A stretch of 64,000 nt of DNA. Origin: Nitrospirota bacterium (GTDB taxonomy: Bacteria; Nitrospirota; Thermodesulfovibrionia; Thermodesulfovibrionales; UBA9159). The stretch is from positions 96,001-160,000 of the forward strand of contig CAVOUE010000009.1 in assembly GCA_963699545.1 (NCBI GenBank), read 5' to 3'. Shown one piece after another: positions 8,220 through 47,109 of the stretch. Within the stretch, counting starts at the first letter, position 1, and each line of letters begins with the position of its first letter. The notes under the pieces are model-generated. The model was not told the DNA's origin and searched no databases. It worked only from the letters and a program-made list of their open reading frames with translations. The position numbers and the translations under genes were made by a program.

Positions 8220-8257
8220 CCCTCCTCCTGCCCTCTGATTATAGCACCAAATTTATT

Positions 8258-8286
8258 TTGACACGATGAAAGCTGATTGCTATAAT
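8258..8286 (+). promoter_or_regulatory. Perfect-consensus sigma70 promoter with extended -10
   Basis: TTGACA-17 nt-TATAAT with TG at the extended -10 position. Confidence 0.8.
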
Positions 8287-8357
8287 TACATTAACTGGAG
8301 CGGGAAAAGGGAGGAACGAACTGTCCGTCTCCGAACGAGGGAGAGGAGGTGACCCAC

Positions 8358-8672
8358 ATGAAGAGACTGCTGACCATGGTTCTCAGCATTTCGGTGCTGG
8401 CTGTCTTCATCGGCCTGGCCGCCGCGCAGCAGGCCGGAGAAAAGAAGACGGTCGACAAGGCATCGCCTAAACTGATTACCGGAAAAGTGATGAGCGTGGA
8501 CCTGAAAGCTAAAGCCTTTACCATCGTCTCAAAGGGCAAGGAGATCACGTTCAGGGCGTCGAAACTGAAGACCCTGCCGAAGACGGGTGACGTCATCGAC
8601 ATCACCTATACTGATACCGGCGGCCCGATGGAGGCGATTAACTTGAACTCGTCACGAAGTAACATCTATTAG
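8358..8672 (+). CDS. Small secreted protein, probable OB-fold-like beta domain
   Basis: GGAGG RBS, signal peptide ending AAA, ITGKVMSVD...GDVIDITY pattern, strong promoter. Confidence 0.75.
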   Translation: MKRLLTMVLSISVLAVFIGLAAAQQAGEKKTVDKASPKLITGKVMSVDLKAKAFTIVSKGKEITFRASKLKTLPKTGDVIDITYTDTGGPMEAINLNSSRSNIY

Positions 8673-15300: not shown

Positions 15301-15526
15301 CTGCAAGGAGGGTCGAGGTTATGGGATAGGTTACCTGGTCCTCCACAAGGTCGGGACTCCGGCCCGCCCAGTCCGTGTAGATGATCACCTGCGTATCGCT
15401 CAGGTCGGGAATGGCGTCAAGGGGCGTCTTTGTGAGGGCCCATACTCCCCATACACAGAGGAACGTCACCATTAGGAAGATGACGAACTTGTTCCGTGCA
15501 CTGTATTCGATAATTTTGGAAATCAT
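12335..15526 (-). CDS. cusA: CusA/CzcA-family heavy-metal RND efflux transporter (Cu/Ag type)
   Basis: DAIPDLSDTQVI, YWARSRVLEY, GAMVDASIIMVEN, EFMPPLYEG, TDPAPLEMFET, AVKRIRPKIMT. Confidence 0.95.
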   Translation of the reverse strand: MISKIIEYSARNKFVIFLMVTFLCVWGVWALTKTPLDAIPDLSDTQVIIYTDWAGRSPDLVEDQVTYPITSTLLAAPKVQAVRGFSFLGSSFIYVIFEEGTNIYWARSRVLEYMQSVKGKLPADVNPVLGPDATSVGWGFNYAVVDEKSGRDLSQLRSLQDWNIKLALESVQGVAQVASVGGFVKQYQISIDPNRLSAYNVSLMKVMEAVRKSNNDVEGRVLELSGVEYMVRGRGYIRSIEDIENIAVGTNGYGTPILLRDVARVQLGPEIRRGLADLDGKGEVAGGIVVVRFGENVLTVIERVKEKIRKDIQPSLPEGVKIVTTYDRSDLIHRSIQTLKEEIIKLSIAVSVVCIVFLFHLPSALVVILTLPVAIIISFICMYYLGVTSNIMSLGGIAIAIGAMVDASIIMVENAHKKLEEWYCDSRKREECTRFDVLIDAAKEVGPSLFFSLLVITVGFFPVFTLQAQAGRLFKPLAYTKTFAMLFSSFLAVTLTPVLMTLFIRGNIRTEEQNPVSRILHRLYEPVARFALRFKTTVILVALIIMGLTLIPYMKLGSEFMPPLYEGSLLYMPVTVPAASISEVSRLLQMQDRILKQIPEVAQVFGKAGRAETATDPAPLEMFETVINLKPEKEWRAGMDVEKLKNEMNDALQIPGVANSFTMPIKNRIDMLATGIRTPVGVKVLGPKLEMIEKISMDVENVIKDVRGTRSAYAERVTTGYFLDIRPKRAEIARYGLSMDDVQAVVAGAIGGMNLTTTVEGRERYSVHIMYARELRNDVERIKRIFVPVNMTGDASGMQGGQKPVSLAHIPLGLLADVEIVKGPTSIKSEEGLLANYVYVDFSGRDVGGYVEEAKKKVASAVKLPEGYRLQWSGEYEYLVSTRERLKLVIPLTALIIFVLLYFNTKSVIKTLIVLLAVPFSLVGSFWLLYLLNYNLSIAVWVGIIALAGLDAETGVVMLLYLELAYEQWKKEGKLRGVDDLKEAVMHGAVKRIRPKIMTVSVILAGLIPIMFSHGAGADVMKRIAAPMVGGVITSTILELIIYPAIYMIWKGRELRKEQESSL

Positions 15527-15568
15527 TTGTCAGTTGTCAGCTGCGAGCAAGGAGCTGTGAGCTTGCGC

Positions 15569-16804
15569 TCAATGTTTATGCCCGCCCAAAGGCTTAACCC
15601 CTTTCAACTGGGCCTCGGAATCAATGAGGAATGTGGCTGATGATGCGACTTTCTCCCCTGCCTTTAACCCCATGAGCACCTCCCTGAACCCTTCGGCCCT
15701 CACCCCGAGCATGACCTCTCTCGGTTCAAAATTCCCTTCTCCCTTGTCAACATAAACGATCTGTCGTGTCCCTGTGTCGATGACCGCGTCATCCGGAATC
15801 GCCAGTTTCTTGCCGAGATTGATCTTTACCTCCACATTGGTGAACATCTGGGGTTTAAGCTGCCCCCCAGGATTCGGGATAGAGAACCGCACTTTCGCGG
15901 TGCGTGTGTCGCCTGAAAGAGTAGGATAGACATAATCGACCCTTGCAGAGAACTCCTTGCCGGGGAAATAACTGAGGGCGATCGTCGCCGTCTCTCCCAC
16001 TCTGACCAAGGGCAATTCATATTCGTAAACATCGGAGATGATCCATACCGTCGAGAGGTCGGCGATATCAAAGAGCTTCTCTCCAGGCATGACCCGCATG
16101 CCCTGCAGAGCCATTTTCTGGACCACATACCCGGTCACCGGGCTATAGAGAGTGAGTGTTCTTATGGGTTTTCCCGATTCTTCAATCTTTCTGACCTGGT
16201 CGTCGGAGATGTCCCAGAGCCTTAACCGCTGTTTCGCTGCCTCCACTATTGAATCCGCGTCCTTTGTGAGCATCCCGCCGATATTTTCATTCTTGATATC
16301 CTTTCCCAGTTTTGCCCACCTGAGAACACTTATGAATTCCTGTTGCGTGGCCACAAGCTCGGGGCTGTAAACCTCTGCGAGGGGCTCGCCCTTCTTCACG
16401 TATTTCCCTGTATAGTCGACATGGAGCTTCTCGATCCAGCCTTCAAACTTGGTGTTTATGGTGGCAAGTCTTCTCTCATCATATTCGACGCGGCCCACGG
16501 TCCTGATCACCTTCTCCAGTGGTCTAACCGAAACCACTACGGTCTTCACACCGATGAGCTGCTGTTTCTCGAGCGGGATCTCGATGGTCGGAGCCTCTGC
16601 CGCTGGTTCTGGCTTTGCCGCCTCTTTGGGTTGTTCACTCCCTTTTGCATGACCCTGGTGCTCAGGAGAGGGTCCGGCCTTTTCTGAAACTGCAGGGACA
16701 GGTGTCTCAACCTTCTTCTGCCCGAAGCCTACCTTTGAAGCATAGACGGCCAGTCCTGCGATGACGATAAGCCCCAGAATGACGAACAGACGGTTCCTTT
16801 TCAT
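15569..16804 (-). CDS. cusB: RND periplasmic adaptor subunit
   Basis: GWIEKL, YSPELVATQQE, LKPQMF, FLIDSEAQL; position in operon. Confidence 0.9.
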   Translation of the reverse strand: MKRNRLFVILGLIVIAGLAVYASKVGFGQKKVETPVPAVSEKAGPSPEHQGHAKGSEQPKEAAKPEPAAEAPTIEIPLEKQQLIGVKTVVVSVRPLEKVIRTVGRVEYDERRLATINTKFEGWIEKLHVDYTGKYVKKGEPLAEVYSPELVATQQEFISVLRWAKLGKDIKNENIGGMLTKDADSIVEAAKQRLRLWDISDDQVRKIEESGKPIRTLTLYSPVTGYVVQKMALQGMRVMPGEKLFDIADLSTVWIISDVYEYELPLVRVGETATIALSYFPGKEFSARVDYVYPTLSGDTRTAKVRFSIPNPGGQLKPQMFTNVEVKINLGKKLAIPDDAVIDTGTRQIVYVDKGEGNFEPREVMLGVRAEGFREVLMGLKAGEKVASSATFLIDSEAQLKGVKPLGGHKH

Positions 16805-18090
16805 TTTTCTTTTTCCCCCGCACCAGTTATGGTCTCAAGTTTTGCGATCGCCTTTTCCCGCTCGGCGAACTGCCCCCAGTACAGGGTCTCGTAATCGAGG
16901 AGGACCTTGAGCCTGCTGATGACCGTCAACGCCTCGACCTTCCCTGTCCTGTAGCCTGCGAGCGCCGACTCAAAATCCTGGTAAGCCTTGGGCACAAGGC
17001 CGTCCCGGTAAAGTTCCATCAGTCTCTCTGTCGTCCTTGCCATCGCGTAATTGTCCCTGATCGTTGATGCGAGCATCGTCTTTGTCGCCAAGAGTTCATG
17101 TTCGGCCCCTCCAAGGTTCGCCTTTGCCTCGAGCACAGCCTGCCTCTGTTTTGTCCTGTAGAAGATAGGGACGTTGATCGCCGTAGTAAGGCTCCACATA
17201 TCCATGAACTCCCCTCCCCGTTTAAAATAGCCTGCATTGATCGTAAAGTCAGGATAGTATTCCCGCTCGGCCATCCTGACCTTCGCTTCTGCAGCTGCAA
17301 CCATTTTCTCCTTCTCTTTAACGAAGGGACTGTTGTCGACGTGCGCAGCAATCAGTTCCTGCACCTTTTCTGCGAGAACAGTCGCTGTTCGCTCCTCAGG
17401 TCTGCCGAGCGGCGCGTTAATATCCCTGCCGAGGGTTGCGTTGAGCATCGCCTCAGCGGACTGGATCTTCTGCTTCAGCATCTCCTCACGCTCAAGGAGC
17501 ATATATTTTTCGGTCTGGGCCATAAGCACTTCCTGCTGCACTCCCATTCCGGAAGAATACCGGGCCATCGCAGCGTCTTCTATGCGGGAGAAGAGGACTG
17601 CCCGGTCCTTTACGAGATCAATGCTTTTGTACGTGAAGAAGAGGTCATAGAAGATCTCCTTCACCCTTTCCACGGTCTTGAGCTGCGACCCCTTGAGGGA
17701 CGCCTTGAGGCTTTCCGATTCCCTTTCCGCCATCTCGCCCTTCAGTGCAAGCTTCCCGGGAAACGGAACCGTCTGGGAGGCCGAGAACATCCACTGGGCT
17801 CCCTGCTCCTTGCCGAGCGTGTACTGTTGAAATCCCTCATTCTGGTAGCCGAACATGAACATGGGGTCGGGAAGGCTCTTTGCCTGAGGGATCCGGTATC
17901 CTGCGGCTTCGAGGCGGTATCCGGCAATGTGGACTTCGTGGTTATTTCCGAGCGCCTCATCGATCAGGTCCTGAAGCTTCAGCTCTTCTGCAAAAACAGA
18001 GGAAGAAAAAAGCAAACAGTACGCGCCAAGCAGCAAAGTAACTCGTACTGCATAGCGCCTACTGCCTCCAGAACCGGCTAACTTGTTCAT
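16801..18090 (-). CDS. TolC-family outer membrane efflux protein
   Basis: SLPDPMF, SQTVPFPGKL, YYPDF, helical repeats; upstream of cusB. Confidence 0.9.
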   Translation of the reverse strand: MNKLAGSGGSRRYAVRVTLLLGAYCLLFSSSVFAEELKLQDLIDEALGNNHEVHIAGYRLEAAGYRIPQAKSLPDPMFMFGYQNEGFQQYTLGKEQGAQWMFSASQTVPFPGKLALKGEMAERESESLKASLKGSQLKTVERVKEIFYDLFFTYKSIDLVKDRAVLFSRIEDAAMARYSSGMGVQQEVLMAQTEKYMLLEREEMLKQKIQSAEAMLNATLGRDINAPLGRPEERTATVLAEKVQELIAAHVDNSPFVKEKEKMVAAAEAKVRMAEREYYPDFTINAGYFKRGGEFMDMWSLTTAINVPIFYRTKQRQAVLEAKANLGGAEHELLATKTMLASTIRDNYAMARTTERLMELYRDGLVPKAYQDFESALAGYRTGKVEALTVISRLKVLLDYETLYWGQFAEREKAIAKLETITGAGEKEK

Positions 18091-18480
18091 TTACTTGGCG
18101 TCTACGGTGAACTTCATCGTGGAAGTCTTGCCCGCCCTGGTTATCTTCACCGCTATATTCCACGATCCTGACATGGAGAGGTTCATTTTTGCCTTGTACT
18201 CATCGCCTTTCAACTCAGCATCAGTCTTATAGTTCATGGCTGGCATTCCGGGCATTGCGGGCATGGAATATTCAACGACCACCTTCGCATCTCTTGCGTG
18301 ATGACCTGACCCGTCGGTAATCTCGATACTGACATTGTTATCACCGACAACAGGCGGATTCTTGTCGATCTTTACCGCCACGTTGTATTCTCCCGCCTTT
18401 TTCGTTACCTCATAATCCTTCGCGTACGCGATGCCTGCCACAAAGAGCAGAACGAGAACAGCTACCATGATTTTTTTCAT
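18091..18480 (-). CDS. YtkA/FixH-like periplasmic Ig-fold protein with Met-rich motif
   Basis: Signal peptide, PPVVGDN, YSMPAMPGMPAM, LSMSGSW. Confidence 0.85.
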   Translation of the reverse strand: MKKIMVAVLVLLFVAGIAYAKDYEVTKKAGEYNVAVKIDKNPPVVGDNNVSIEITDGSGHHARDAKVVVEYSMPAMPGMPAMNYKTDAELKGDEYKAKMNLSMSGSWNIAVKITRAGKTSTMKFTVDAK

Positions 18481-21372: not shown

Positions 21373-22266
21373 TTATTTCATGCTGTCGAAAAACGGCTGT
21401 ATATTATACGAGTTATTGATAAGTCTTCCTCTCTTCTGACACCTGGCTGCTCTTTCAGAATTAAATTCTACAAGTGAAATCTGCAACCTATCGGTCGGCC
21501 TGAATCTATAGCAGCATTCGTTGCCGCTTGCAGGCGGACAGTATGGCTCGTGCACACATTTTGGTTCGAATTCATCTTCACTGAAATGAGGCCTCACCAA
21601 TTCCGTGAGTTCGTTGACGGAATAAGGTTCAGTATCCAGCCAAATTCCGACTCTGCCCGCATTCCTAAAATGCAAGTACCTAACTATAGTATTCTGTTTA
21701 GCCAGTGCAATCAGTTGAGGAATGACATCTTCGTTCAATCCGCGGACAATAATTGCTGACAGGCCCACTCTTCCCAATTTATATGAAATCAGGGAATTAA
21801 ACGCTTCAAGTTTCTGCTCCAGGCAATCACACCCATTTATAACTTCATAGGCATGCTTGTTAGCGTAGCCGCCATCCAACGAAAGACCTAAGGCAAAAGC
21901 TGTCCCGCTTCTCTTTAGTTCCTTAAGCGATTTCATAAAAGTTTGATCGGTATATCTTGTCCCGTTGGAGACGATATGAACTCTATGTCTGTATTGATGC
22001 GCTATGCGTATAAAATCAAGAATGTTAGGGTGTAGGGTGGGTTCGCCGCCACAAAACTTCAAGAGCACAGGGAATGGCAAGTTAGCGCAAACATATTTAA
22101 AGTGGTCTAATGACATATCTTGGGTGGAGCGCACCGGGTTGTAGCAAAAATGACAGGTCATATTGCACCGGTTCGTAATGTCCACGACAAGTGATTCATA
22201 AGGGTTTTTGTCTATGGCATATTCTATCTTGCACTCAGGTTGCCGTTCACGATTTGCATTGCGCAT
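21373..22266 (-). CDS. Radical SAM protein
   Basis: CNMTCHFC (CxxxCxxC), GGEPTLHP, SNG, SLDG; extra C-terminal Cys (C..EPYC...ECC...C). Confidence 0.9.
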   Translation of the reverse strand: MRNANRERQPECKIEYAIDKNPYESLVVDITNRCNMTCHFCYNPVRSTQDMSLDHFKYVCANLPFPVLLKFCGGEPTLHPNILDFIRIAHQYRHRVHIVSNGTRYTDQTFMKSLKELKRSGTAFALGLSLDGGYANKHAYEVINGCDCLEQKLEAFNSLISYKLGRVGLSAIIVRGLNEDVIPQLIALAKQNTIVRYLHFRNAGRVGIWLDTEPYSVNELTELVRPHFSEDEFEPKCVHEPYCPPASGNECCYRFRPTDRLQISLVEFNSERAARCQKRGRLINNSYNIQPFFDSMK

Positions 22267-23365
22267 TTGACGAACCCCATCTTTTCAGTTTCTTCAAGCG
22301 TGCCTTCACACGCTGCAGAACAAGCGCCGCAGTTCTTCTCGTTCCGGGCACCGTCCATTGCCTTAGATAGTAATACTTGTCCAGAACAAACACAACGGTG
22401 AAAGTGAAAAACACCTTCAACCTGGGAGTGTTAGCCATCTGGGGTATTCTTGCCTTAACCGGCACCATTATCTTTCCGTTTCCTGAGTAATCAATCTCCT
22501 CAAGAGCTGCAATCATCCGTTGGACAAATCTGCTCCTCTCTCTGCTGCATTTTGCCGGGCCGGGAGCTATGTGCATCAAGGTAGGATTTGTATTAATTTC
22601 CCAGATCTGCGGTTTATTGTCCAGCATGCCGTAGTCAACGCGGCCGTAATTGATGCCTGCCAGTTGGAAGACTGCACCAAGTTGACTTTCGTGTGGATTA
22701 TTCTTTAAATAATGCTGTTCCTCATAAAGTTCCATCTTTTTCTTAGCAAGGCTATTAACGTTCTTCAGCATCCATCCCTGGCCAAACATCATATGTTGAG
22801 GAAAAATTCTCTCTCCAACAATGTACGCCGAATATTTCCTAAAGACGCCATCCGGGTCGGCGGTATTACAAAATTCTATCATGACTTTGTCTCTGAGTCC
22901 CTGTCCTTGCTGTGAAAGTACATTAATGGCCGCGTCTAACGCACCCTGAGTTTCAAGCAGCGGCGTAAGATTTCCATGGTGGTCGTTCTCCCCCCGAACG
23001 AAGACAGGAAACTGCCCTGGCAATCGGCATTCTGCAAGCCGATAGATGTTATACCTATTAACACCCTGTTCATAGAGCGTACGCAATAAGGTGTACCTTC
23101 GCATTGATCGCAAAGGATGATTAAGCAGTTGAAGCCTATTGTTCACACTCGCAAGTTCTTCCCATATTGCAGACAGGATCTTTGCCCGCTCTTGGGTCAA
23201 GCGCTCAATATCAGAAAAAATATATGTCCCCTGCTTCAGGGATCTGCGATGTGGCAAAGATTCATACGATAAAACCTTGATCCTGGGCAAGAGTTCTTTA
23301 GCCCATGTATTGATAAATGACCTTATGGTATAAGCGTGTTTCTGAGTGACAAGGTAATAAATCAT
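22247..23365 (-). CDS. Hypothetical protein with ATP-grasp-like motifs
   Basis: FPVFVR, MIEFC, RKYSAYIVG, YGRVDY, IWEINTNP resemble ATP-grasp ligase motifs. Confidence 0.65.
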   Translation of the reverse strand: MIYYLVTQKHAYTIRSFINTWAKELLPRIKVLSYESLPHRRSLKQGTYIFSDIERLTQERAKILSAIWEELASVNNRLQLLNHPLRSMRRYTLLRTLYEQGVNRYNIYRLAECRLPGQFPVFVRGENDHHGNLTPLLETQGALDAAINVLSQQGQGLRDKVMIEFCNTADPDGVFRKYSAYIVGERIFPQHMMFGQGWMLKNVNSLAKKKMELYEEQHYLKNNPHESQLGAVFQLAGINYGRVDYGMLDNKPQIWEINTNPTLMHIAPGPAKCSRERSRFVQRMIAALEEIDYSGNGKIMVPVKARIPQMANTPRLKVFFTFTVVFVLDKYYYLRQWTVPGTRRTAALVLQRVKARLKKLKRWGSSNAQCKS

Positions 23366-23709
23366 CAGTCTGTATGTCCTCGATCAATATTTCACGCGAG
23401 ATTGCTTTAAGACGTTCGACATTTCGAGATTACATATCCGTTTTCTGCTCGATGATAGCTGTTATTGTATTATTATATATCAGCGTATGACAAATTTCGA
23501 TATGAAAGATTCAAGCTATAAAAACAAGGGTCACGCGCGGCAAGCCGCTGGGCAGCAGGCGATCTGCCATGCTGTCCAATTTACTACAACAGTGAAGATT
23601 TTCGAGAGAAGTCTGCGGTAACGATCAAGCTCAGACGCGGGCAATGAGTCCGAAACTGAAATTTATGATTGTCCCGCAATACGTTTCCGAAAAAGATATA
23701 ACAGAGGAG

Positions 23710-25107
23710 CTAATGAATAAGACTCTGTATATCGAGTTTCTGCACTATCATGTTAACCTTGCCTGAAGAAGTCCTCTCTACATGATCAGCCATGACCACT
23801 TCTGCATGGATTGCATCTTTATTGGACCCTAAGGTTCCCTCGAGTTTTTTCCGTATATACGATAGGTCAATATTGGCAAAGCTCTTTGATGGCACTATTC
23901 TCAAAAGAACCTTCCCTGGTTCTTCCTGAAAGAATTGACATTGCAGAATATTCGGGAAACTCGCTATCCAGAGAGGGCGCACATCGATCAGTTCCCTGTT
24001 CTTCCCAATGAGGAAGTCGTGAGACCTTCCCTCGATTGTTTCAACACTTTTGTGGTGCCTGCCACATTCATGGCAGAAATCGGTGTATCCCGACACCAAA
24101 TCACCAGTTTTGTACCGTACCAGTGGCATTGCATAATTAGTGAATCCCGTCGCTACAATCTCTTTGTAGCCCTGAATGCTATCTATAAGTTCTGTGAAGC
24201 CGTAAAGCGGATGGAAGTGGATACTGGCTGATTTCTCACACTCACCTCCGATTGCCGCACATTCATTCATACCGAACATGGAAAAAACCCGACCGTTAAA
24301 AGTCTCTTCCAGCAGTTTTCTCTGCCACCTGTGTAAAGTCTCTGAATATACGATAACGGCTTTTATATTCCGGTAAGGCGACAGATGGTGGTCTCTGATG
24401 ACCGTAGAAAGGACTGTAAGCCACGAAGGATACCCTAGTATATACTCAGGGTCGAATTTTCTGATCATATCCAGGCATTTTAGCAGGCATTCCACAGTAA
24501 GATATTTCATAGAAAGAACTAACCTATTGCCGTATCTCGTAAAGGGCACACTCTTATTGCCCAATTGAATATAGTGCCAAAGCATAACCTCTCTCGCCTT
24601 CGGGGTGTAGCCTATCCTGCCCAGAATGTTCGTCCTGAACGCAAGGAATGCAGCACTGCTTTCCTTGGTTCTGTAAATGGACAGAGGGATACCCGAAGAA
24701 CCACCGGTGGGTTTCCTAATAAGAGACCTTAACGGAATGCTCTCGTCAACAAATTCTGTGGCACGATCTCTTAGTTCTTTTTTGTCAAGATAAGGAAGCA
24801 CTTTTAAGTCATCAGCGCTCTGCATTTTTTCGGGTCGGAACCCAATACTGCGAAAGAGCCTCCTGTAGTAGGGTACATGTTTCATTGAATGTATAAGTGA
24901 GTCTCTTGTCTGCTCAAGCTGATAGGCATGCAACCTGTCGTTATCCCAATTTTCCGATTCTTTCAATATGGTCAACCACCGCAGGAAAGTAGCGCCGTAA
25001 AATACCTTATACCTTAGGGAAAGAGGCAGCCGTTCATAGATGTCCAATGCTGCTCTTTCTGCTGCTGCTGACAACTTTACAAATTTCTTAGCGCTTTCAT
25101 AGACCAT
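23710..25107 (-). CDS. Phenylacetate-CoA ligase-like (CapK-type) adenylate-forming protein
   Basis: VPYYRRLF, LPYLDK, TGGSSGIP, GYPS, FGMNE, AMPLVRYKTGD, IEGR. Confidence 0.85.
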   Translation of the reverse strand: MVYESAKKFVKLSAAAERAALDIYERLPLSLRYKVFYGATFLRWLTILKESENWDNDRLHAYQLEQTRDSLIHSMKHVPYYRRLFRSIGFRPEKMQSADDLKVLPYLDKKELRDRATEFVDESIPLRSLIRKPTGGSSGIPLSIYRTKESSAAFLAFRTNILGRIGYTPKAREVMLWHYIQLGNKSVPFTRYGNRLVLSMKYLTVECLLKCLDMIRKFDPEYILGYPSWLTVLSTVIRDHHLSPYRNIKAVIVYSETLHRWQRKLLEETFNGRVFSMFGMNECAAIGGECEKSASIHFHPLYGFTELIDSIQGYKEIVATGFTNYAMPLVRYKTGDLVSGYTDFCHECGRHHKSVETIEGRSHDFLIGKNRELIDVRPLWIASFPNILQCQFFQEEPGKVLLRIVPSKSFANIDLSYIRKKLEGTLGSNKDAIHAEVVMADHVERTSSGKVNMIVQKLDIQSLIH

Positions 25108-25593
25108 CGTGGGAAACCCGTGTGCACACTAAATGTTTCTACCTCTTTGCATTCGTCGCTTATATGCGATGCGAAATTATTAGAAGCGCTCTGCTATTAA
25201 AGGAATCTTTTCCCCCTTTAATCCAATACCTTTCGCATGCGTTCATTATAACAGGAATGGGAACCCCTACTGCACCGTTGGGATCTAATGTTCTTTATCA
25301 TAAGCCAAGTAATTTTGGCACGGACAACACAACAGAGATATGTTCCATACCTACAATGTGGACCACAAATGCTCGGGACATACTGCATATTTCCAGAAAT
25401 AATCAGAACCGTTACAAGGGCACCTCATGATGTGGGATTCAGGAAGTAGTCAATTCAAGGCCCTGCAGTAACTTGGTGTTCTCTTTCTTGACTTTAGTCG
25501 CCATTATGCTATGCTTTGCAAAGATAGTGACGCTCCAGAGAGGAAGACAAACTCGACCTTGCCGGACCCAATTGAATAAAACAGAGAAGATCA

Positions 25594-25809
25594 TTGGAGA
25601 TTTTTAAAAGGCCGATTATAATTCTCATCTTTGCCTTGTTGATTGCTGGAGGGTTGTTTTTCTGGTATGAATATCGACCGAGCATGATCAGGGCGGGTTG
25701 TTCCATTGAGGCAGAGAAAAGGGCAGATAAGGATGAGTACCTGTATGAAATTGTCTATCGACATTGTTTAAGAGCGCATGGGATTGAGTACCTTGAACAG
25801 AAGGATTAG
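25594..25809 (+). CDS. Small single-TM hypothetical protein
   Basis: TM helix then FWYEYRPSMIRAGC...YRHCLRAHG (two Cys). Confidence 0.6.
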   Translation: MEIFKRPIIILIFALLIAGGLFFWYEYRPSMIRAGCSIEAEKRADKDEYLYEIVYRHCLRAHGIEYLEQKD

Positions 25810-26093
25810 CTCCCAGCTTATACAACAAAGCCATAGGGAAGAGCAGCACCAGATAGAAAAGATCATTGATTACTTACGATGGAAATCCTCACTCCGCCAA
25901 ACAAATCGGGACACCGTGTTTCAGGAAGTACCTGAACGAACGCCACTTACTTACTCGCGCCGTACACTTCTTCTTTAATCTTTCCGGACAGCCCTCCCTT
26001 TTCAGTTTATTGGAATGAGGAGATTCTCAGCTTGACTTTGGTTGCAGGCATTCTTTATTTTTAAGACAAAATTCGCGAGGAAAAGGAGAGCGC

Positions 26094-40597: not shown

Positions 40598-40626
40598 TTG
40601 CAAATGGCACCGGGATTTAATATAAT
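40598..40626 (+). promoter_or_regulatory. Putative sigma70 promoter of the metallothionein-YtkA / peroxidase pair
   Basis: TTGCAA-17 nt-TATAAT, then AGGAGG RBS before ATG 40659. Confidence 0.65.
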
Positions 40627-40658
40627 AACTTTTATATAAAGATCAGGAGGAGGTCAGC

Positions 40659-41456
40659 ATGTTAAGAAGGATCGGGATCATTATCCTCGCAGTTGTGTTT
40701 ATAGGTTCCATGTCGTTGGCTCCTGTTATTGATACTGTTCACGCGGATGCCAAGTGCGAGTGCGGTAAGGACTGCAAGTGTGAGCACTGCAAGACCGGCA
40801 AGGGAGAATGCCAGTGCAAGGGTGACGGCAAGGGCGGATGTCAGTGCGGGAAGGACTGCAAGTGTGAGCACTGCAAAACTGGCAAAGGTGAATGCGCCTG
40901 CGGCAAGGGTGACGGCAAGGGCGGATGCAACTGTAAGAGCGACGGCAAGGGCGGATGCCAGTGCGGCAAGGACTGCAAGTGTGAGCACTGCAAGACCGGC
41001 AAGGGAGAATGCCAGTGCAAGGGTGACGGCAAGGGCGGATGCCAGTGCGGCAAGGACTGCAAGTGTGAACATTGTGCACGCGGTGCTGCTGCTGCAAAGA
41101 CAAAGCCGGCATCAGATGCAGACTATGCAAAGACCATGAAATCAAAGGCCGGGACGTTCAAGGCGACCTACACGAGCGACCCTGAGGCCATCCCTGTGGG
41201 CACGATCATCAGCTGGAAGCTGAAGGTCGAAACAGCCGACGGCAAAGCGGTGACCAACGCAAAGATAACCGTTGACGGAGCGATGCCTGAGCACGGCCAC
41301 GGTCTGCCCACACAGCCGAAGGTGAAGAGCCTTGGTGACGGCAGCTATCTCGTTGAAGGGATCAAGTTCAGCATGCCGGGATGGTGGACCATGAAATTTT
41401 CGATCAAGGCAGGAGGAAAGACCGACAGCGTAACATTTAATCTCCAGCTCAAATAG
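40659..41456 (+). CDS. Secreted protein: metallothionein-like Cys-rich repeats fused to a YtkA/FixH-like domain
   Basis: Signal peptide; 28 Cys in 107 aa of repeats; C-terminal DGAMPEHGHGLPTQP...FSMPGWW YtkA-like motif. Confidence 0.85.
   Translation: MLRRIGIIILAVVFIGSMSLAPVIDTVHADAKCECGKDCKCEHCKTGKGECQCKGDGKGGCQCGKDCKCEHCKTGKGECACGKGDGKGGCNCKSDGKGGCQCGKDCKCEHCKTGKGECQCKGDGKGGCQCGKDCKCEHCARGAAAAKTKPASDADYAKTMKSKAGTFKATYTSDPEAIPVGTIISWKLKVETADGKAVTNAKITVDGAMPEHGHGLPTQPKVKSLGDGSYLVEGIKFSMPGWWTMKFSIKAGGKTDSVTFNLQLK
40755..41075 (+). repeat. Intragenic ~84-bp tandem repeats (three full units, one partial unit, one short spacer unit)
   Basis: Unit encodes CxCGKDCKCEHCKTGKGECxCKGDGKGG; units 1 and 3 nearly identical at DNA level. 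Confidence 0.9.
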
Positions 41457-41462
41457 AGGTCA

Positions 41463-42713
41463 GTGAAAAGATTGCTAAGATCCTTGAGAAGGGTTCCTGT
41501 TCTGCTGATCGCCTTCACTCTGCCGGTCCTCCTCATAGCGAGGAAGGCACCAGCAGAAACAGAGACCTTCAAGGAAATGCACCTGTGGAGCGAAGGAGAT
41601 ATCCAGGTCCTTCGCTCCTTTTCTCTCTCCTCCCTTCCGCCTCTGCCAAAGGACCCTTCCAATGCCTATGCTGACGATCCCCGGGCAATAGAGCTCGGCA
41701 AGAAGCTCTTCTTCGATAAGAGGCTCAGCGCCAACGGCAAGGTCTCCTGCGGAACATGCCATAACCCGGACATGAGCTTCACGGACAGTCTTCCCCTTGC
41801 AAAGGGCATGGGTACGACAACGAGGCGGACAATGCCTCTCATCGGCTCTGCATACAACGCATGGTTCTTCTGGGACGGCAGAAAGGACAGCCTCTGGTCA
41901 CAGGCGATCGGACCCATCGAAAGCGCCGTGGAGCACGGTTTCACCAGGGCGATGTGCGCACACCTCATTACCGACAGATACAAGAGCGAATATGAGCAGA
42001 TCTTCGGGACACTGCCGAAAATAGACCATAAGAACTGCCCTCCCCTTGCAAGCCCCGGAACAGGCAACCCTGCTGCACTGAAGGCGTGGAAAGCAATGAA
42101 GCCCGCGGACAGGGATGTGGTGAACAGGATCTATGCCAACATCGGAAAGGCGATCGCTGCCTATGTAAGACGGATACTGCCGCAGCCGGCACCCTTTGAC
42201 CGGTACGTTGAAGCAGTGGCCAAGAACGACCCTGAAGGGGCGGACAGGCTCATCAGCCATGATGCGGTTGAGGGGTTGCGGCTCTTCACCGGCAAGGCGA
42301 AATGTACGAATTGCCACTTGGGACCGCTCTTCACAAACAGCAGCTTCCACAACGTTGGACTGAGCAACCCCAAGGACAAGGGAAGAGCAGAGGGCATCGG
42401 AAAGGTCCTTTCCGATGAGTTCAACTGCTTCGGCAAGTACAGCGATGCGAAGCCTGAAGAATGCCCGGAGCTGAGGTTCATTGACACGAACAGGTCAAAG
42501 TATGCCGGAGCGTTCAAAACGCCCACCTTGCGGAATGTTGCCGCAAGGCCGCCCTACATGCATGACGGGCAGCTGAAGACCCTTGCCGAGGTCATGAACT
42601 TTTACCGGCGGAGCGGAAGCCATGAGCTTGGGCATCAGGACCTCACCAATGAAGAGCTTTCGAAGATAGAAGCGTTCCTGAAGACCCTGAGCTCGCCTCT
42701 GAGCTATCCGTAG
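41463..42713 (+). CDS. Di-haem cytochrome c peroxidase, MauG/MbnH/BthA-like
   Basis: LFFDKRLS..G.VSCGTCH, FWDGR, CTNCH, FKTPTLRNV, PYMHDG. Confidence 0.88.
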   Translation: MKRLLRSLRRVPVLLIAFTLPVLLIARKAPAETETFKEMHLWSEGDIQVLRSFSLSSLPPLPKDPSNAYADDPRAIELGKKLFFDKRLSANGKVSCGTCHNPDMSFTDSLPLAKGMGTTTRRTMPLIGSAYNAWFFWDGRKDSLWSQAIGPIESAVEHGFTRAMCAHLITDRYKSEYEQIFGTLPKIDHKNCPPLASPGTGNPAALKAWKAMKPADRDVVNRIYANIGKAIAAYVRRILPQPAPFDRYVEAVAKNDPEGADRLISHDAVEGLRLFTGKAKCTNCHLGPLFTNSSFHNVGLSNPKDKGRAEGIGKVLSDEFNCFGKYSDAKPEECPELRFIDTNRSKYAGAFKTPTLRNVAARPPYMHDGQLKTLAEVMNFYRRSGSHELGHQDLTNEELSKIEAFLKTLSSPLSYP

Positions 42714-42873
42714 CAGCTCTGTCCACATTGTCCTTTGTCCGCCTGACCCGCGTGAGCCGGAGGATCCCGAGCTTTTCTTGCGGCTGGGGCATTCTTTGTT
42801 GACTTGAATATTGAAAAGATGTTAATAGAATAGTGTTTGCATGGAATTATGAATAAGGAGGAAACGAAGGAAC

Positions 42874-43461
42874 ATGGCGGAAGTCGAACTCCCGAATACC
42901 GAAGAACTGGAAGAGATCAGGTCCAAGACCTTTACAAAACGGGTGGCGCTTGTCACCGCCATCTTTGCGGTCATGCTCGCCGTTTCCTCCCTCGGCGGGA
43001 ACAATGCGATGAAAGAGATGCTTCTCGCTCAGCAGCAGTCCTCTGACCAGTGGGCGTTCTACCAGGCAAAGGTGGTCCGCGAGCATCTCTACCGGAGCCA
43101 GAAGATGCGTATAGAAGCCGACCTCATGGAACGGGGCACGACCATGAAGCCGGAGATGCGGAAGCACTATGAATCCATGCTCAGGAAGATGAATGAGGAA
43201 GAGGCCCGGTATAGCAAAGAGAAGAAAGAGATCGAGCAGGAGGCGAAGAAGCTTGAACACGAGCGGGACATCAACAGGAGCAAAGACCCCTATTTCGACT
43301 ACGCAGAAGTGCTCCTCCAGATCTCCATTGTGATGGCCTCCATCTCCATACTGGCGGTCTCCCGTCATGTGTTCTATTTTGCCATCGTGCTCGCCTCTCT
43401 TGGAGCACTCATGGGCCTCAACGGATTCCTGCTCATTTTCAAGATCCCTTTCTTGCATTAA
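42874..43461 (+). CDS. DUF4337-like membrane protein
   Basis: VALVTAIFAV, SDQWAFYQAK, coiled coil, AEVLLQISIV. Confidence 0.75.
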   Translation: MAEVELPNTEELEEIRSKTFTKRVALVTAIFAVMLAVSSLGGNNAMKEMLLAQQQSSDQWAFYQAKVVREHLYRSQKMRIEADLMERGTTMKPEMRKHYESMLRKMNEEEARYSKEKKEIEQEAKKLEHERDINRSKDPYFDYAEVLLQISIVMASISILAVSRHVFYFAIVLASLGALMGLNGFLLIFKIPFLH

Positions 43462-43474
43462 GAGTGTTGGGATA

Positions 43475-45025
43475 ATGAAAAATAAAAGAGTTCCCGGCAG
43501 AGCCGCAGTAACCTTATTGTGCATTTTCCTCCTCTCCTTCTCCTCCGCCTATGCCGAAGAGACGGTCATACGCATTCTTCATATCAATGATTTCCACGGC
43601 TTCGCGGAGCCATACATGCCGCTTGGGTCAGAGGAGATGCGGGGCGGTATCGCATATCTCGCGGCAAAGGTGGATGCCCTCCGCAAAGAGAAGCCGACCC
43701 TCCTGCTCTCGGCCGGGGACATGATCCAGGGCGACAACTGGGCAAACCTCTTCCAGGGTGAATCCGTGATTGAACTCATGAACGCCATGAACTTTGACGC
43801 CATGGTCCTGGGGAATCATGAATTCGATTTCGGGCAGGAGGTGCTCGGGAAGCGAATTTCAGAGGCCCGTTTCCCTGTCCTCGGGGCGAATGTCCGGGGG
43901 CTCGACATGCTGAAACCGTTCGCTGTAAAGGAGATCAGCGGGGTCAGGATCGCGATTATCGGAGTCGTGACAGACGACACCCCGGCGACGACACATCCGC
44001 GGAACGTGACCGGCCTGAAATTCGAACTGCCTGCAGATGCCGTTGAGAGATACGTGAGGGAACTGAGGCAAACGGCAGATATTGTCATTGTCCTTTCTCA
44101 CATTGGGTATTCCGCTGACAGGATACTGGCGGAAAAGGTGGATGGGATAGATGTCATCGTCGGCGGGCATTCCCATACAAAGATAGAAAAGCCGGTCATG
44201 CTCGGCAAAACAGTGATCGTTCAGGCGTGGGAGCACGGAAAGGCCCTCGGCGTGTTAGACCTCACCGTGCGGGACCGAAAGATATCAGGCTTCGAAGGTC
44301 ATCTTGAAGAGATCGGACCGGTTCCGGGCGAGGGAGACAGGGGCGTTCTGGCGATCGTTGAGAAGTATGAACGAAAGAGCGATACGGCGTTGAATGAAAA
44401 AGCAGGTGAGACCGAAGTCGACCTCGATGGAGAGAATGCGAGGAGGAAAGAGACCAATCTCGGCGATCTCGTTGCGGATGTGATGAGGCTGGTATCCGGT
44501 GCAGATGCAGCTATTGGCAATGGCGGGGCCATCAGGACGAACATAAAGAAAGGCGAGATACGGGTGAAGGACATCTATGCTGTCCTGCCGTTTGACAGTT
44601 ACGTCGTTGCCATCAGGCTCACGGGAAAGCAGATAAGGGAAGCGCTGGAACATGGGGTATCGGCCATAGAGGAAGGAAGCGGAAGGTTTCCCCAGGTATC
44701 AGGCATTTCCTTCACCTATGCCCCCTCTGAAAAGGAGGGTGCGCGGGTGAAGGATATCTTCATTGCGGGGAAGCCCCTGGAACCCGACAGGGAATACACC
44801 GTTGCCACCAACGACTTTCTGGCTGCCGGAGGCGACGGGTACAAGGTCTTTGGAGATGCCATAAGGTCTTCAGTGGATTTCTCCAATATCGGCGGGACAC
44901 TGAAAGGTGAAAAGCTCGTGTACAGCGATTCCGGCAGGTGGCTGAAGGATATAGTCGGTGACTATATAAGAGAGAAAAAGAAAATAGCGCCCGGGGTCGA
45001 GGGCAGGATAAGGGAGATACGTTGA
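43475..45025 (+). CDS. Bifunctional UDP-sugar hydrolase / 5'-nucleotidase
   Basis: ILHINDFHG, AGD, GNHEFD, GGHSH, NGGAIR, LPF, FPQVSG, GGDGY. Confidence 0.9.
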   Translation: MKNKRVPGRAAVTLLCIFLLSFSSAYAEETVIRILHINDFHGFAEPYMPLGSEEMRGGIAYLAAKVDALRKEKPTLLLSAGDMIQGDNWANLFQGESVIELMNAMNFDAMVLGNHEFDFGQEVLGKRISEARFPVLGANVRGLDMLKPFAVKEISGVRIAIIGVVTDDTPATTHPRNVTGLKFELPADAVERYVRELRQTADIVIVLSHIGYSADRILAEKVDGIDVIVGGHSHTKIEKPVMLGKTVIVQAWEHGKALGVLDLTVRDRKISGFEGHLEEIGPVPGEGDRGVLAIVEKYERKSDTALNEKAGETEVDLDGENARRKETNLGDLVADVMRLVSGADAAIGNGGAIRTNIKKGEIRVKDIYAVLPFDSYVVAIRLTGKQIREALEHGVSAIEEGSGRFPQVSGISFTYAPSEKEGARVKDIFIAGKPLEPDREYTVATNDFLAAGGDGYKVFGDAIRSSVDFSNIGGTLKGEKLVYSDSGRWLKDIVGDYIREKKKIAPGVEGRIREIR

Positions 45026-46053: not shown

Positions 46054-46812
46054 CTACCTTTTGTGACAATATACGCAGAGATCAAAGGCTGTCTTTGCCT
46101 TGAATCGGTAAAGCGCGGGGCTGTCTGCGCTGTGTGGATCATGGCAGCTTCCGCAGTAAAAAGGCATCCCGGGCCGTGCAGGGTCCTCGATCCACTTCTC
46201 TGACCCATTTTTTTCGGTTAAGCCAATGGGGTGTGCCGAAGAGCCTGCCGCTGCTATTACATGGGGACGTTTCGCGACAGCAGGATGACACTGCAGACAC
46301 AGATCGACCGGGCTGCTCACGAGCAGAGCCACAGTATTGGCGGCATGAGGAGTATGACAGCTCAGGCACGTCCCCTTTGCCACCGGAGGGTGGATATGCT
46401 TTTTCTTGAAGTCCGCCTTTGGATGGCACGCAAAACAGAGAGCCGGAACTTGCTTGACAAGCAGTTTTTTGTACGGTGAAGAATGGGGGTCGTGGCAGTT
46501 CGTGCACCCTGTTCCAAGGGGCGGATGTACGGTCTTTCCGGCAAATGGTGCCCTGTCGTGACATCCATAGCACAGGTCGGGCTGATCTGTTGAGAGACCG
46601 AAGCGGTTCGCGGCTGTCTTCGCATGCGGCACTTTCGGGGATCCTATAGCCGAGTGGCAAGACGGGCATCCCAGGCCGACGGCTGGATGAACTATTTTCC
46701 GGCTTACGAGTTTTGTGTGACATCCGCGGCAATCCTTCGAAACGGGTGCAGCGCTGGTCTCCGACGCGAGCAAGACCACGATCAATAGAGCAAACACGTC
46801 GACGATCGACAT
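46054..46812 (-). CDS. Periplasmic multihaem cytochrome c (9 CxxCH, paired-CxxCH type)
   Basis: CRGCH, CPSCH, CYGCH, CTNCH, CFACH, CLSCH, CLQCH, CGSCH, CVYCH; HxP and CH.PH repeats; signal peptide. Confidence 0.9.
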   Translation of the reverse strand: MSIVDVFALLIVVLLASETSAAPVSKDCRGCHTKLVSRKIVHPAVGLGCPSCHSAIGSPKVPHAKTAANRFGLSTDQPDLCYGCHDRAPFAGKTVHPPLGTGCTNCHDPHSSPYKKLLVKQVPALCFACHPKADFKKKHIHPPVAKGTCLSCHTPHAANTVALLVSSPVDLCLQCHPAVAKRPHVIAAAGSSAHPIGLTEKNGSEKWIEDPARPGMPFYCGSCHDPHSADSPALYRFKAKTAFDLCVYCHKR

Positions 46813-47109
46813 AGGCGATATGCCCCCAACAAATTGCTGAGACGTGCAGGTCTTCCAACGCATGTCTTCTGCTCATTGTAGCACACAACACGGTCGACAT
46901 CGCTCCGGGGTGAACCAATATGGTTGACAGAGTACACGCCTGACATCCCAAACATTTTTTTCTGTGTTTACGGTTGTGGTGACGTGCAGGGGAAATGCAT
47001 ACTTCCATCATCCTGGTCAGCGTGCTAAACTGATTGTAGAGGAATTATCCGGACCGGGCAGCCGTCCGGGATTAAGATGGCACGAGAAAAAGGGTTGTAA
47101 GGAGGGGGT

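Follow-up and report, generated by a model that had tools for sequence, protein, structure and literature searches.

What is the role of a gene pair in which an exported protein, joining a Cys-rich array to a copper-carrier type of domain, is followed directly by a di-haem enzyme? This question is raised by positions 40,659 to 42,713 of a 64,000-nucleotide (nt) stretch from a Nitrospirota bacterium of the order Thermodesulfovibrionales (assembly GCA_963699545.1, contig CAVOUE010000009.1, positions 96,001 to 160,000 of the forward strand), the whole of which is referred to below as the window. A sequence-only reading of the locus had described a two-gene unit: gene 1 with a signal peptide, a Cys array and a YtkA domain bearing MPEHGH and MPGWW, and gene 2 with two CxxCH motifs and the TPTLRN/PYMHDG signature. 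All of these elements were seen again in the open reading frames (ORFs) and Pfam matches. According to our analysis, the locus is best read, by analogy, as an MbnP/MbnH-like module of a copper protein and an oxidising enzyme, in which the carrier would differ in fold and would bear an exported, metallothionein-like extension particular to its lineage. What was observed directly, namely which domains are present, that the genes stay paired, that Tyr replaces a haem ligand and that the Cys array is modular, is presented in the following sections.

Conservation of the Gene Pair

Loci were retrieved with two peptide patterns taken from the carrier (YtkA) only, using one genome per species, and the best 80 of 286 confirmed stretches were scored for pairing by tblastn with the di-haem protein of the window. 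An orthologue of this protein (46–78% identity) lay directly downstream of the carrier gene in 74 of the 80 loci, and the neighbourhood survey thus bore out the expectation that the two genes are conserved as neighbours. The projected gap between them had a median of 18 nt (range -34 to 601). In the remaining loci, the orthologue was adjacent in reversed order (L048) or 2.7 kb away (L060), the contig stopped about 250 nt past the carrier gene (L046), or the locus contained no di-haem orthologue (L016, L020, and L041). The genomes of the last three loci all encode an orthologue elsewhere, in two cases beside another YtkA gene.

The pair is spread over at least eight phyla. The titles of the locus records name Nitrospirota, Chloroflexota, Aminicenantes, Gemmatimonadaceae, Deinococcus, and Devosia/Phyllobacteriaceae, as well as Desulfobacterota, Rokuibacteriota, Actinomycetes, Chromatiales, and Fraserbacteria. 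Three forms of the carrier were found: a single domain with a membrane anchor or lipobox, present in most phyla; a form with two YtkA domains and a His-rich N-terminus, tandem YtkA matches occurring in 27 of the 80 loci; and the form with the Cys array, present in 10 loci, nine of them from Nitrospirota-type taxa and one (L013) from Desulfobulbaceae. The enzyme gene follows in eight of these 10 Cys-array loci. The Cys array is thus a lineage-specific addition of Nitrospirota to a much wider pair, at a position where other lineages carry other metal-binding sequence, and not a defining part of the system.

No third conserved gene was revealed by the Pfam annotation of 14 neighbourhoods or by the tblastn count over the 80 loci. 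A multicopper oxidase directly followed the pair in six loci and CopC/CopD lay near it in four, while 71 loci had neither within the flanks examined. In four loci with a multicopper oxidase after the pair (L023, L029, L032, and L084), tblastn gave a YtkA match within that stretch, and in one of them (L023, positions 7030-8508) Pfam identified an N-terminal YtkA domain fused to the multicopper oxidase. A search of the window's genome (87% complete) turned up no multicopper oxidase; homologues of haem-copper oxidase subunit I are encoded there.

The YtkA/CrdA-Type Carrier Domain

The YtkA family (PF13115) matched residues 166–246 of the gene 1 protein with 52.5 bits (Pfam cut-off 25.9), the two motifs beginning at residues 209 (MPEHGH) and 239 (MPGWW). 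In an alignment of 68 domains, M209, P210, H212, G213, H214, G215, P217, T218, P220, F237, M239, G241, and W243 were invariant, which gives the family the signature MPxHGHGxPT...MxGxW. The AlphaFold (AF2) model of the domain is a beta-sandwich with a mean predicted local distance difference test score (pLDDT) of 91.2, and its top structural match is CrdA of Helicobacter pylori (PDB 9LL2 and 9LL4; Foldseek E-value 3e-6, template modelling (TM) score 0.68-0.80). By VIA, CrdA reached a Z score of 13.5 with a root-mean-square deviation of 2.0 Å over 100 residues; the next match was a generic immunoglobulin-like one (Z 8.9), and the copper proteins P19/FtrA, PmoD, and CopC stayed at background level (Z 7-8). 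CrdA was also the sole match of the family profile in the PDB (E-value 1.9e-4), with MPeHGHGlPt aligned on MPEM-PGMPAM and sMpGwW on SMNGTW of CrdA. When the carrier model was compared by Foldseek and VIA, MbnP, MopE, and CorA did not appear in the top 50 matches, a negative that leaves room for a relationship.

The M-x-G-x-W motif is also present in three other YtkA paralogues of the window's genome, none of which has a di-haem neighbour, and because CrdA aligns at this point (SMNGTW), the motif and its W243 are generic to the fold. We infer that the metal site of the carrier is formed by M209, H212, H214, and M239, capped by W243, on one edge of the beta-sandwich. The His/Met motif, the CrdA structure, which according to the title of its entry was solved with silver, and the copper genes in nine of the 80 neighbourhoods all suggest that the carrier binds Cu(I); the family, the motifs and the neighbours likewise point to copper as the probable metal of the system. 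Only two YtkA domains, those of CtaK (YtkA) and YcnJ from Bacillus, have been studied experimentally, according to the available part of the text of PMC12362106. Both are extracytoplasmic and implicated in the delivery of copper to the CuA site (available sections of PMC13344008 and PMC12362106), and for CtaK a part in CuA assembly is described (PMC13344008, in part).

Elsewhere in the window, a Cus-like copper/silver efflux operon contains a paralogue of the YtkA/CrdA type (Table 1).

The Di-Haem Enzyme and Its Predicted Tyrosine Ligand

The gene 2 product belongs to the CCP_MauG superfamily: it matches the profile PF03150 with 139 bits (Pfam), has CxxCH motifs at residues 96 and 281 and the inter-haem Trp W137 (FWDGR), and carries TPTLRN at 353 and PYMHDG at 364. 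Public annotation of the orthologues is "cytochrome-c peroxidase." The feature that sets the enzyme apart is the predicted ligand of its E haem. As stated in the available parts of PMC6405878 and PMC11892367, Met-His ligation is typical of canonical enzymes, and Tyr-His ligation of MauG and BthA, which form the bis-Fe(IV) state. In HMMER alignments, the canonical Met (AVNTM, AVETM, AVKIM) was matched by Y381 of the sequence EVMNFY, so the gene 2 enzyme has Tyr at the aligned Met position. Residues 347-385 correspond, with equal lengths, to residues 260-298 of the MauG chain, placing Y381 at chain position 294; by alignment only, the enzyme is thus assigned to the MauG type with a six-coordinate Tyr-His haem. 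The 32 residues around Y381 matched only MbnH in the whole PDB (PYMHDG...EVIDIY).

Y381, W137, and the distal residues Q147, P151, and E157 were invariant in all 68 orthologues. The canonical enzyme of the same genome (L005) retains the E-haem Met. Compared with L005, the gene 2 enzyme has two insertions; one of them, at residues 320-343, is not found in L005, a bacterial cytochrome c peroxidase (bCcP), and its C322 and C334 are kept in 68 of 68 orthologues.

The systems in which MauG and MbnH operate were not recognised around the pair. Genes for methylamine dehydrogenase (mau) were absent among the neighbours in the window and in the 14 annotated loci, and an MbnP-family partner was not seen either: the adjoining protein matches YtkA only (Pfam), and MbnP is not among the structural matches listed. 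When 301 Nitrospirota genomes were searched with the MbnH model, 173 had sub-threshold matches and none was above the cut-off. Given the position and invariance of Y381, we nevertheless see in the enzyme a clade of its own, whose mode of action is predicted to be that of the MauG type, with formation of bis-Fe(IV) and oxidation of a protein as the predicted activities. The earlier label "MauG/MbnH-like di-haem peroxidase" is therefore upheld with respect to the Tyr that replaces the E-haem Met in 68 of 68 orthologues; it does not extend to the NCBIfam cut-offs, which the enzyme fails to reach, or to the overall sequence, which is nearer to canonical enzymes.

Two further observations concern related enzymes. 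The same genome has a third di-haem CCP-like gene (L006, G000:C3:428202-429044), whose product is an unusual variant: Phe occupies the E-haem ligand position (EVIEFF), and His stands where the inter-haem Trp would be expected (FHDGR). In four Chloroflexales/Roseiflexaceae loci (L049, L050, L057, and L066), the di-haem orthologues are longer at the C-terminus by about 25-40 residues, among which there is a third CxxCH, and may be tri-haem proteins.

Predicted Carrier–Enzyme Complex

A complex was predicted from enzyme residues 36-416 with two haems and a 126-residue carrier domain, using an alignment of 68 rows for each protein. Three runs scored 0.78, 0.74, and 0.78, and the best control 0.20; in a calibration that holds roughly for this case, 116 of 157 solved complexes and two of 215 mismatched pairs came up to the mark. 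At least 81% of the contacts were common to the runs, and the pLDDT of the partner was at least 86. On the carrier, the contacts are made by H212-G213-H214, L216-K221, and S238-M239-P240; on the enzyme, by T282-C284 and L286 at the E-haem CxxCH, by N292-H296, by P335-N343 of the insertion, and by H387-G390. The surfaces involved are highly conserved: H212, G213, H214, P217, T218, P220, and M239 of the carrier in 68 of 68 sequences, and, in the enzyme, F295 in 68, H296 in 65, E336 in 63, and F or Y at position 339 in 68 of 68. As the contacts join the His/Met loops of the carrier to the E-haem CxxCH, the putative metal site of the carrier is predicted to face the Tyr-ligated E haem.

The Cys Array

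The Cys-rich region of the gene 1 protein comprises residues 30-139. The sequence-only reading had given it 107 residues; the length is in fact 110, while its counts of 28 Cys and four His and the absence of aromatic residues are correct. The region also has 26 Gly, 23 Lys, and no F, W, or Y. It is made up of three full 21-residue modules with seven Cys and one His each (33-53, 61-81, and 100-120), a truncated module with five Cys (128-139) and one CxC (91-93), and in the DNA it appears as a tandem repeat, the periods being 84 and 117 nt and the copies matching at 86-90%.

With the whole gene 1 protein as the query, 329 relatives were obtained at E <= 0.001, the best 120 of which were examined. 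All 120 contain PF13115, and the homologues are 50-91% identical to the gene 1 protein over the full length. Counting the window protein, 57 of 121 proteins have at least six Cys. A regular expression for the module, C-x-C-G-K-[DG]-C-x-C-E-H-C-x-T-G-K-G-x-C-x-C, found 126 copies in 54 of these 57 Cys-rich proteins; 123 of the 126 copies are exactly 21 residues long, with the His retained in 120 of the 123, the seven Cys being fixed by the search pattern itself. Taken together, the copies contain 27.5% Cys, 20.6% Gly, and 17.6% Lys and are free of F, W, Y, L, and I. The number of Cys per protein varies from seven to 44 among the Cys-rich homologues and is most commonly 14, 21, or 28.

With the array alone as the query, all 39 longer relatives (>=194 residues) carry PF13115. 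An exhaustive phmmer search of 1.84 billion representatives yielded only nine clusters at E <= 0.001 for the array; two are YtkA fusions already among the homologues, and seven are new (six with Cys modules only and one with YtkA followed by Cys modules). There were no eukaryotic or bacterial metallothioneins among the nine. Relatives of the array protein are named Nitrospirota, Thermodesulfovibrio, and Dissulfurispiraceae, and the protein name at NCBI is "FixH family protein." The seven-Cys module, variable in copy number, is thus almost confined to YtkA proteins of Nitrospirota. Alternative layouts of the module occur in P0242, P0243, P0245, and P0246: one has a YtkA domain with C-terminal modules, and the three short ones, of 86-113 residues, consist of a signal peptide and modules only. 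These short proteins may be free-standing exported metallothionein-like proteins or fragments from contig ends.

As the sequence-only reading had suggested, the composition and seven-Cys modularity of the array are metallothionein-like; judging from its sequence, the array does not appear to be homologous to any described metallothionein family. Of the operational marks of metallothioneins, it shows the high Cys content in CxC/CxxC (28 of 110 residues) and the lack of F, W, and Y, and departs from the small, free-standing, cytosolic type by its signal peptide and fusion with YtkA. The binding of metal in thiolate clusters of the array is putative.

Locus Layout and Neighbouring Genes

The coordinates of the features are collected in Table 1. 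The 6-nt gap reported earlier between the two genes applies if gene 2 starts at GTG 41463; the database copy of its product has 413 residues, which implies a start at TTG 41472 and a gap of 15 nt, and the GAGG at 41458-41461 suits the TTG better than the GTG. A sigma-70-like promoter of the unit's own had also been proposed. A candidate with 10 of 12 matching positions does exist, but two promoter-like sites were observed in the region against 1.7 expected from shuffled sequences, so the match by itself is not significant. A Tat signal was considered for the gene 1 protein and rejected, because homologues carry KK or RK where this protein has RR. Likewise, the reverse-strand ORFs over the Cys repeat (40662-41145) were taken as shadows of the repeat, because it is the forward frame that is conserved in homologues.

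Table 1. Positions of the features in the window (position 1 is the first letter of the window).
Feature	Position	Strand	Basis or remark
Gene 1: exported Cys-array/YtkA fusion protein, 265 residues	40659..41456	+	ORF list, Pfam, homologues
Gene 2: exported di-haem enzyme, CCP_MauG superfamily, 416 residues (413 from TTG 41472)	41463..42713	+	
Sigma-70-like promoter candidate, TTGCAA-17-TATAAT	40598..40626	+	10/12 matches
Strong Shine-Dalgarno-like AGGAGGAGG, ending 5 nt ahead of the gene 1 ATG	40645..40653	+	Read from sequence
Signal peptide, Sec type, residues 1-29	40659..40745	+	Positive N-terminus, hydrophobic core, VHA/DA cleavage motif (cut between A and D); read by eye from sequence
Metallothionein-like Cys array, residues 30-139	40746..41075	+	Composition, repeat and module search
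YtkA/CrdA-fold domain	41154..41453	+	Pfam, 68-sequence alignment, AF2, structural match
CGTCH, peroxide-side (P) haem motif, residues 96-100	41748..41762	+	Invariant in 68/68
CTNCH, E-haem motif, residues 281-285	42303..42317	+	Residues 282-284 and 286 in predicted interface
Insertion, residues 320-343, with invariant C322/C334	42420..42491	+	Predicted docking surface centred on residues 335-343
Codon of Tyr381, predicted axial E-haem ligand	42603..42605	+	Alignment, invariant in 68/68
DUF4337 protein	42874-43461	+	Own promoter-like site at 42804-42831
5'-Nucleotidase/metallophosphoesterase	43367-45025	+	
Multihaem cytochrome	46054-46863	-	Four paired-CXXCH repeats
Cus-like copper/silver efflux operon	12338-18480	-	
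129-residue YtkA/CrdA-type protein with MPAMPGMPAM	18094-18480	-	
Outer-membrane efflux protein (CusC-like)	16804-18090	-	
CusB-like adaptor	15572-16804	-	
RND pump (CusA-like)	12338-15526	-	

Downstream of the pair are genes for a DUF4337 protein, a metallophosphoesterase and a multihaem cytochrome, none of which is conserved beside the pair in other genomes. Elsewhere in the window, positions 22001-26000 have a G+C content of 0.44-0.45, compared with about 0.53 in the rest, and may be foreign DNA.

Comparison With Known Systems

The closest analogy is offered by MbnP/MbnH of Methylosinus trichosporium OB3b (PDB 6E1C), in which the gene for an exported copper-binding protein is likewise followed by a di-haem CCP_MauG gene; the stretch around the predicted Tyr ligand, for which MbnH is the sole PDB match, follows the pattern PYMHDG...EV.D/NxY. 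According to the available part of PMC11951088, MbnP requires MbnH, which produces kynurenine from Trp at a His/Met copper site, so that the site consists of His, Met and the oxidised Trp, and kynurenine-copper sites are found on other folds in MopE* and CorA. In contrast to MbnP, the partner in the window has the YtkA/CrdA fold and no WxW motif, and the 14 annotated neighbourhoods contain no genes for a TonB transporter or methanobactin.

With MauG, which acts in tryptophan tryptophylquinone biosynthesis of Paracoccus denitrificans (PDB 3L4M), the enzyme shares the di-haem fold (Foldseek E-value about 1e-13), a Tyr aligned with the axial one at position 294, and the inter-haem Trp and distal Gln/Pro/Glu; moreover, its protein partner is predicted to dock on the side of the six-coordinate haem. 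It differs from MauG in scoring below the model cut-off, in having no methylamine dehydrogenase genes nearby, and in an insertion with a conserved Cys pair, defined by comparison with L005 and making up the docking loop of the prediction. The canonical peroxidases (Shewanella BccP 3O5C, Nitrosomonas 1IQC, and Geobacter MacA 4AAL) are the best whole-sequence matches in the PDB (E-values 4e-31 to 2e-29) and the best in Foldseek, and they resemble the enzyme in their two CxxCH motifs, inter-haem Trp and distal pocket. They differ in their E-haem Met (AVxxM), replaced by an invariant Tyr in the window enzyme, and in the obligate pairing of the window enzyme's gene with a carrier gene.

As for the carrier, CrdA is its closest structural relative, with aligned metal motifs, but CrdA has the Met-only MPEM-PGMPAM where the window family has MPEHGHGLPT, and CrdA-type copies, such as the one in the efflux operon of the window (12338-18480), sit with efflux pumps and not with a di-haem enzyme. 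CtaK (YtkA) of Bacillus subtilis and the YtkA domain of YcnJ belong to the same PF13115 family, with no di-haem partner reported for either. The array resembles metallothioneins of the SmtA/PmtA type and fungal copper metallothioneins in its Cys content of about 25-28%, its richness in Gly and Lys, the lack of aromatics, the CxC/CxxC motifs and the modular structure, and differs from them in being exported by Sec, fused to a carrier domain and without sequence kinship to the Pfam metallothionein families. Fungal copper metallothioneins with seven Cys and the Tat-exported Csp1 provide further parallels. Csp1 and Csp3, however, are four-helix bundles and not Gly/Lys-rich repeats (PMC9484137, in its available part).

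In the literature searched, which included few subscription journals and no supplements, neither the pairing of YtkA with a di-haem enzyme nor the fusion of YtkA with an exported metallothionein-like array was seen to be described. This agrees with the sequence-only reading, which knew of no such fusion, and the conserved pair appears to be unstudied.

Proposed Function and Alternative Explanations

The favoured model may be outlined as follows. The gene 1 product would be a periplasmic copper carrier of the YtkA/CrdA fold, and the gene 2 product a peroxide-activated di-haem enzyme with an E haem ligated by His and Tyr, as in MauG. In docking, the carrier is predicted to bring the loops of its metal site onto the enzyme's E-haem face; H2O2 would bring the enzyme into a high-valent state, which would then oxidise the metal site of the carrier. 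By analogy with the action of MbnH on MbnP, the likeliest event would be that a side chain at the copper site is matured once by oxidation and that copper binding is thereby created or tuned. In this Nitrospirota lineage, the carrier would have gained N-terminal modules with seven Cys and one His, exported by Sec into a reducing, sulfidic periplasm, where the array, beside the carrier site, may buffer Cu(I) or some other soft metal with its thiolates at high capacity. In this model we infer that the carrier is oxidised, on which target this happens, and that the array stores metal, and the chance that a MauG-type enzyme carries out oxidative maturation of the carrier seems to us to fall somewhat short of even.

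A number of findings weigh against this model. The enzyme reaches 169.4 bits with the MauG model (NCBIfam TIGR03791, cut-off 443.85) and 147.2 bits with the MbnH model (TIGR04039, cut-off 362.85); by whole sequence, its PDB matches are better with canonical peroxidases (4e-31) than with MbnH (1e-20), MauG (3e-16), or BthA (2e-11), and by fold it is roughly equidistant from canonical peroxidases, MbnH, and MauG. A target residue is also hard to name. The sequence-only reading had singled out the WW of MPGWW, and this proposal found little support: W243 is common to YtkA/CrdA proteins without a haem partner, position 242 is W in 61 of 68 sequences and M, F, A, or Y in the other seven, both Trp lie outside the predicted contacts, and no candidate target in the carrier is at once subfamily-specific and invariant. 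The complex score is the prediction model's own confidence, the calibration is only rough here because our own alignments and a ligand were present, and the predicted docking geometry would suit simple electron transfer equally well. Furthermore, two of the 10 Cys-rich loci have no adjacent di-haem gene, and in one of the genomes with such an unpaired Cys-rich form, the third of those whose orthologue lies elsewhere, there is no YtkA gene within 1.5 kb upstream of that orthologue. With regard to the array, Pfam gave no metallothionein family for the gene 1 protein at E <= 0.01, only YtkA, and seven Cys per module are also compatible with a disulfide-rich structure.

These points leave room for other explanations of what the enzyme oxidises. 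It is possible, if rather unlikely, that the two proteins form a redox-cycling pair, in which the H2O2-activated enzyme would repeatedly oxidise the Cu(I) of the carrier to Cu(II) with no modification of side chains; as a "cuprous peroxidase," it would clear peroxide together with toxic Cu(I), or release copper from a Cu(I) store such as the Cys array. Such cycling is in keeping with the intact peroxide-handling residues Q147, P151, and E157, with the lack of an evident subfamily-specific invariant Trp or Tyr in the carrier, and with the multicopper oxidases directly downstream in six of 80 loci, some multicopper oxidases being cuprous oxidases. The predicted interface, which sets the His/Met loops on the E-haem CxxCH edge, also speaks for it, as electron donors are generally held to dock at this edge in bacterial peroxidases (PMC11892367, available part). 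Strict gene-for-gene pairing, on the other hand, though compatible with cycling, is typical of enzyme–substrate maturation pairs. We know of no described copper-oxidising di-haem peroxidase, and the Tyr-His enzymes so far reported are poor general peroxidases that oxidise a protein or a substrate not yet known (available parts of PMC6405878 and PMC11892367). We consider it improbable that both proteins are assembly factors for a third one, the carrier bringing copper and the enzyme installing a protein-derived cofactor in another cuproenzyme. There are precedents in the mtoX-SCO1/senC-mauG clusters of methanethiol oxidase and the SCO1-MauG fusions of some organisms (PMC5739008, in part) and in the action of YtkA/CtaK in CuA assembly (PMC13344008, in part); the six multicopper oxidases after the pair, four of them with a YtkA match and one (L023) a fusion confirmed by Pfam, and the haem-copper oxidase subunit I homologues of the window's genome also speak for it. 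Yet no third gene is conserved, 71 of 80 loci being without a multicopper oxidase or CopC/CopD and the other neighbours varying, the window's genome at 87% completeness yielded no multicopper oxidase, and the complex prediction sets the carrier itself on the enzyme.

Whatever the enzyme does, the array might be something other than a copper store: a disulfide-knotted spacer or stalk, or a binder of Zn, Cd, Hg, an iron-sulfur cluster or polysulfide. Disulfide bonds are common in exported repeats rich in Cys, a folded mini-domain is suggested by the near-invariant His and by the rigid spacing of TGKG, and neither Pfam nor the nine relatives among 1.84 billion representatives connect the array with a metallothionein. 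Against this stand the composition (25-28% Cys, much Gly and Lys, and neither aromatic nor aliphatic residues from which a core could form), the odd number of Cys per module (seven), and the range of seven to 44 Cys among close relatives, which together with DNA repeats 86-90% identical indicates fast change of copy number. In addition, a copper-carrier domain is fused to the array in 39 of 39 proteins of at least 194 residues, and sister lineages have, where the array lies, N-termini rich in His and a further YtkA domain, so this position appears to collect metal-binding sequence; on balance, an array that is no metal store strikes us as unlikely. The possibility that an ordinary periplasmic peroxidase stands by chance beside a copper chaperone, with no functional link, would agree with the public annotation and with the canonical enzymes as best PDB sequence matches. 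It is already disfavoured, and we regard it as very improbable: of the 80 loci, retrieved independently and from many phyla, 74 keep the pair, the replacement by Tyr is without exception, a canonical Met-ligated enzyme (L005) is already present elsewhere in the genome, and the complex prediction passes its controls.

The most far-reaching reading of the locus can be put forward only tentatively, and we are inclined to doubt it as a whole. In this reading, a MauG-type enzyme would build or drive a copper site on a carrier of the CrdA/YtkA fold, and such pairs, spread over at least eight phyla, would be one more and very common class of systems that combine a copper protein with a haem enzyme oxidising proteins. 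Anaerobic Nitrospirota would, in addition, have joined the carrier to a metallothionein-like Cu(I) store, the first bacterial one to be exported, by the Sec route, and together they would make up a peroxide-gated periplasmic device for the capture, storage and release of copper in sulfidic habitats.

Biological Significance

To our knowledge, protein-oxidising di-haem enzymes are known from a few systems only (MauG, MbnH, and BthA), and kynurenine-copper sites from three unrelated folds. If the model is true, protein-oxidising chemistry would extend to a common and experimentally tractable family with the YtkA/CrdA fold, occurring from Deinococcus and Devosia to Chloroflexota and anaerobic Nitrospirota. 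It would provide a concrete substrate for a large clade annotated merely as "cytochrome-c peroxidase," and YtkA domains, studied so far in the two Bacillus examples only, would be given a role that can be tested. An exported array of this kind would challenge the view of bacterial metallothionein-like proteins as cytosolic, and it would bear on the copper supply and copper tolerance of sulfate-reducing and sulfur-cycling bacteria, in whose habitats sulfide makes copper scarce.

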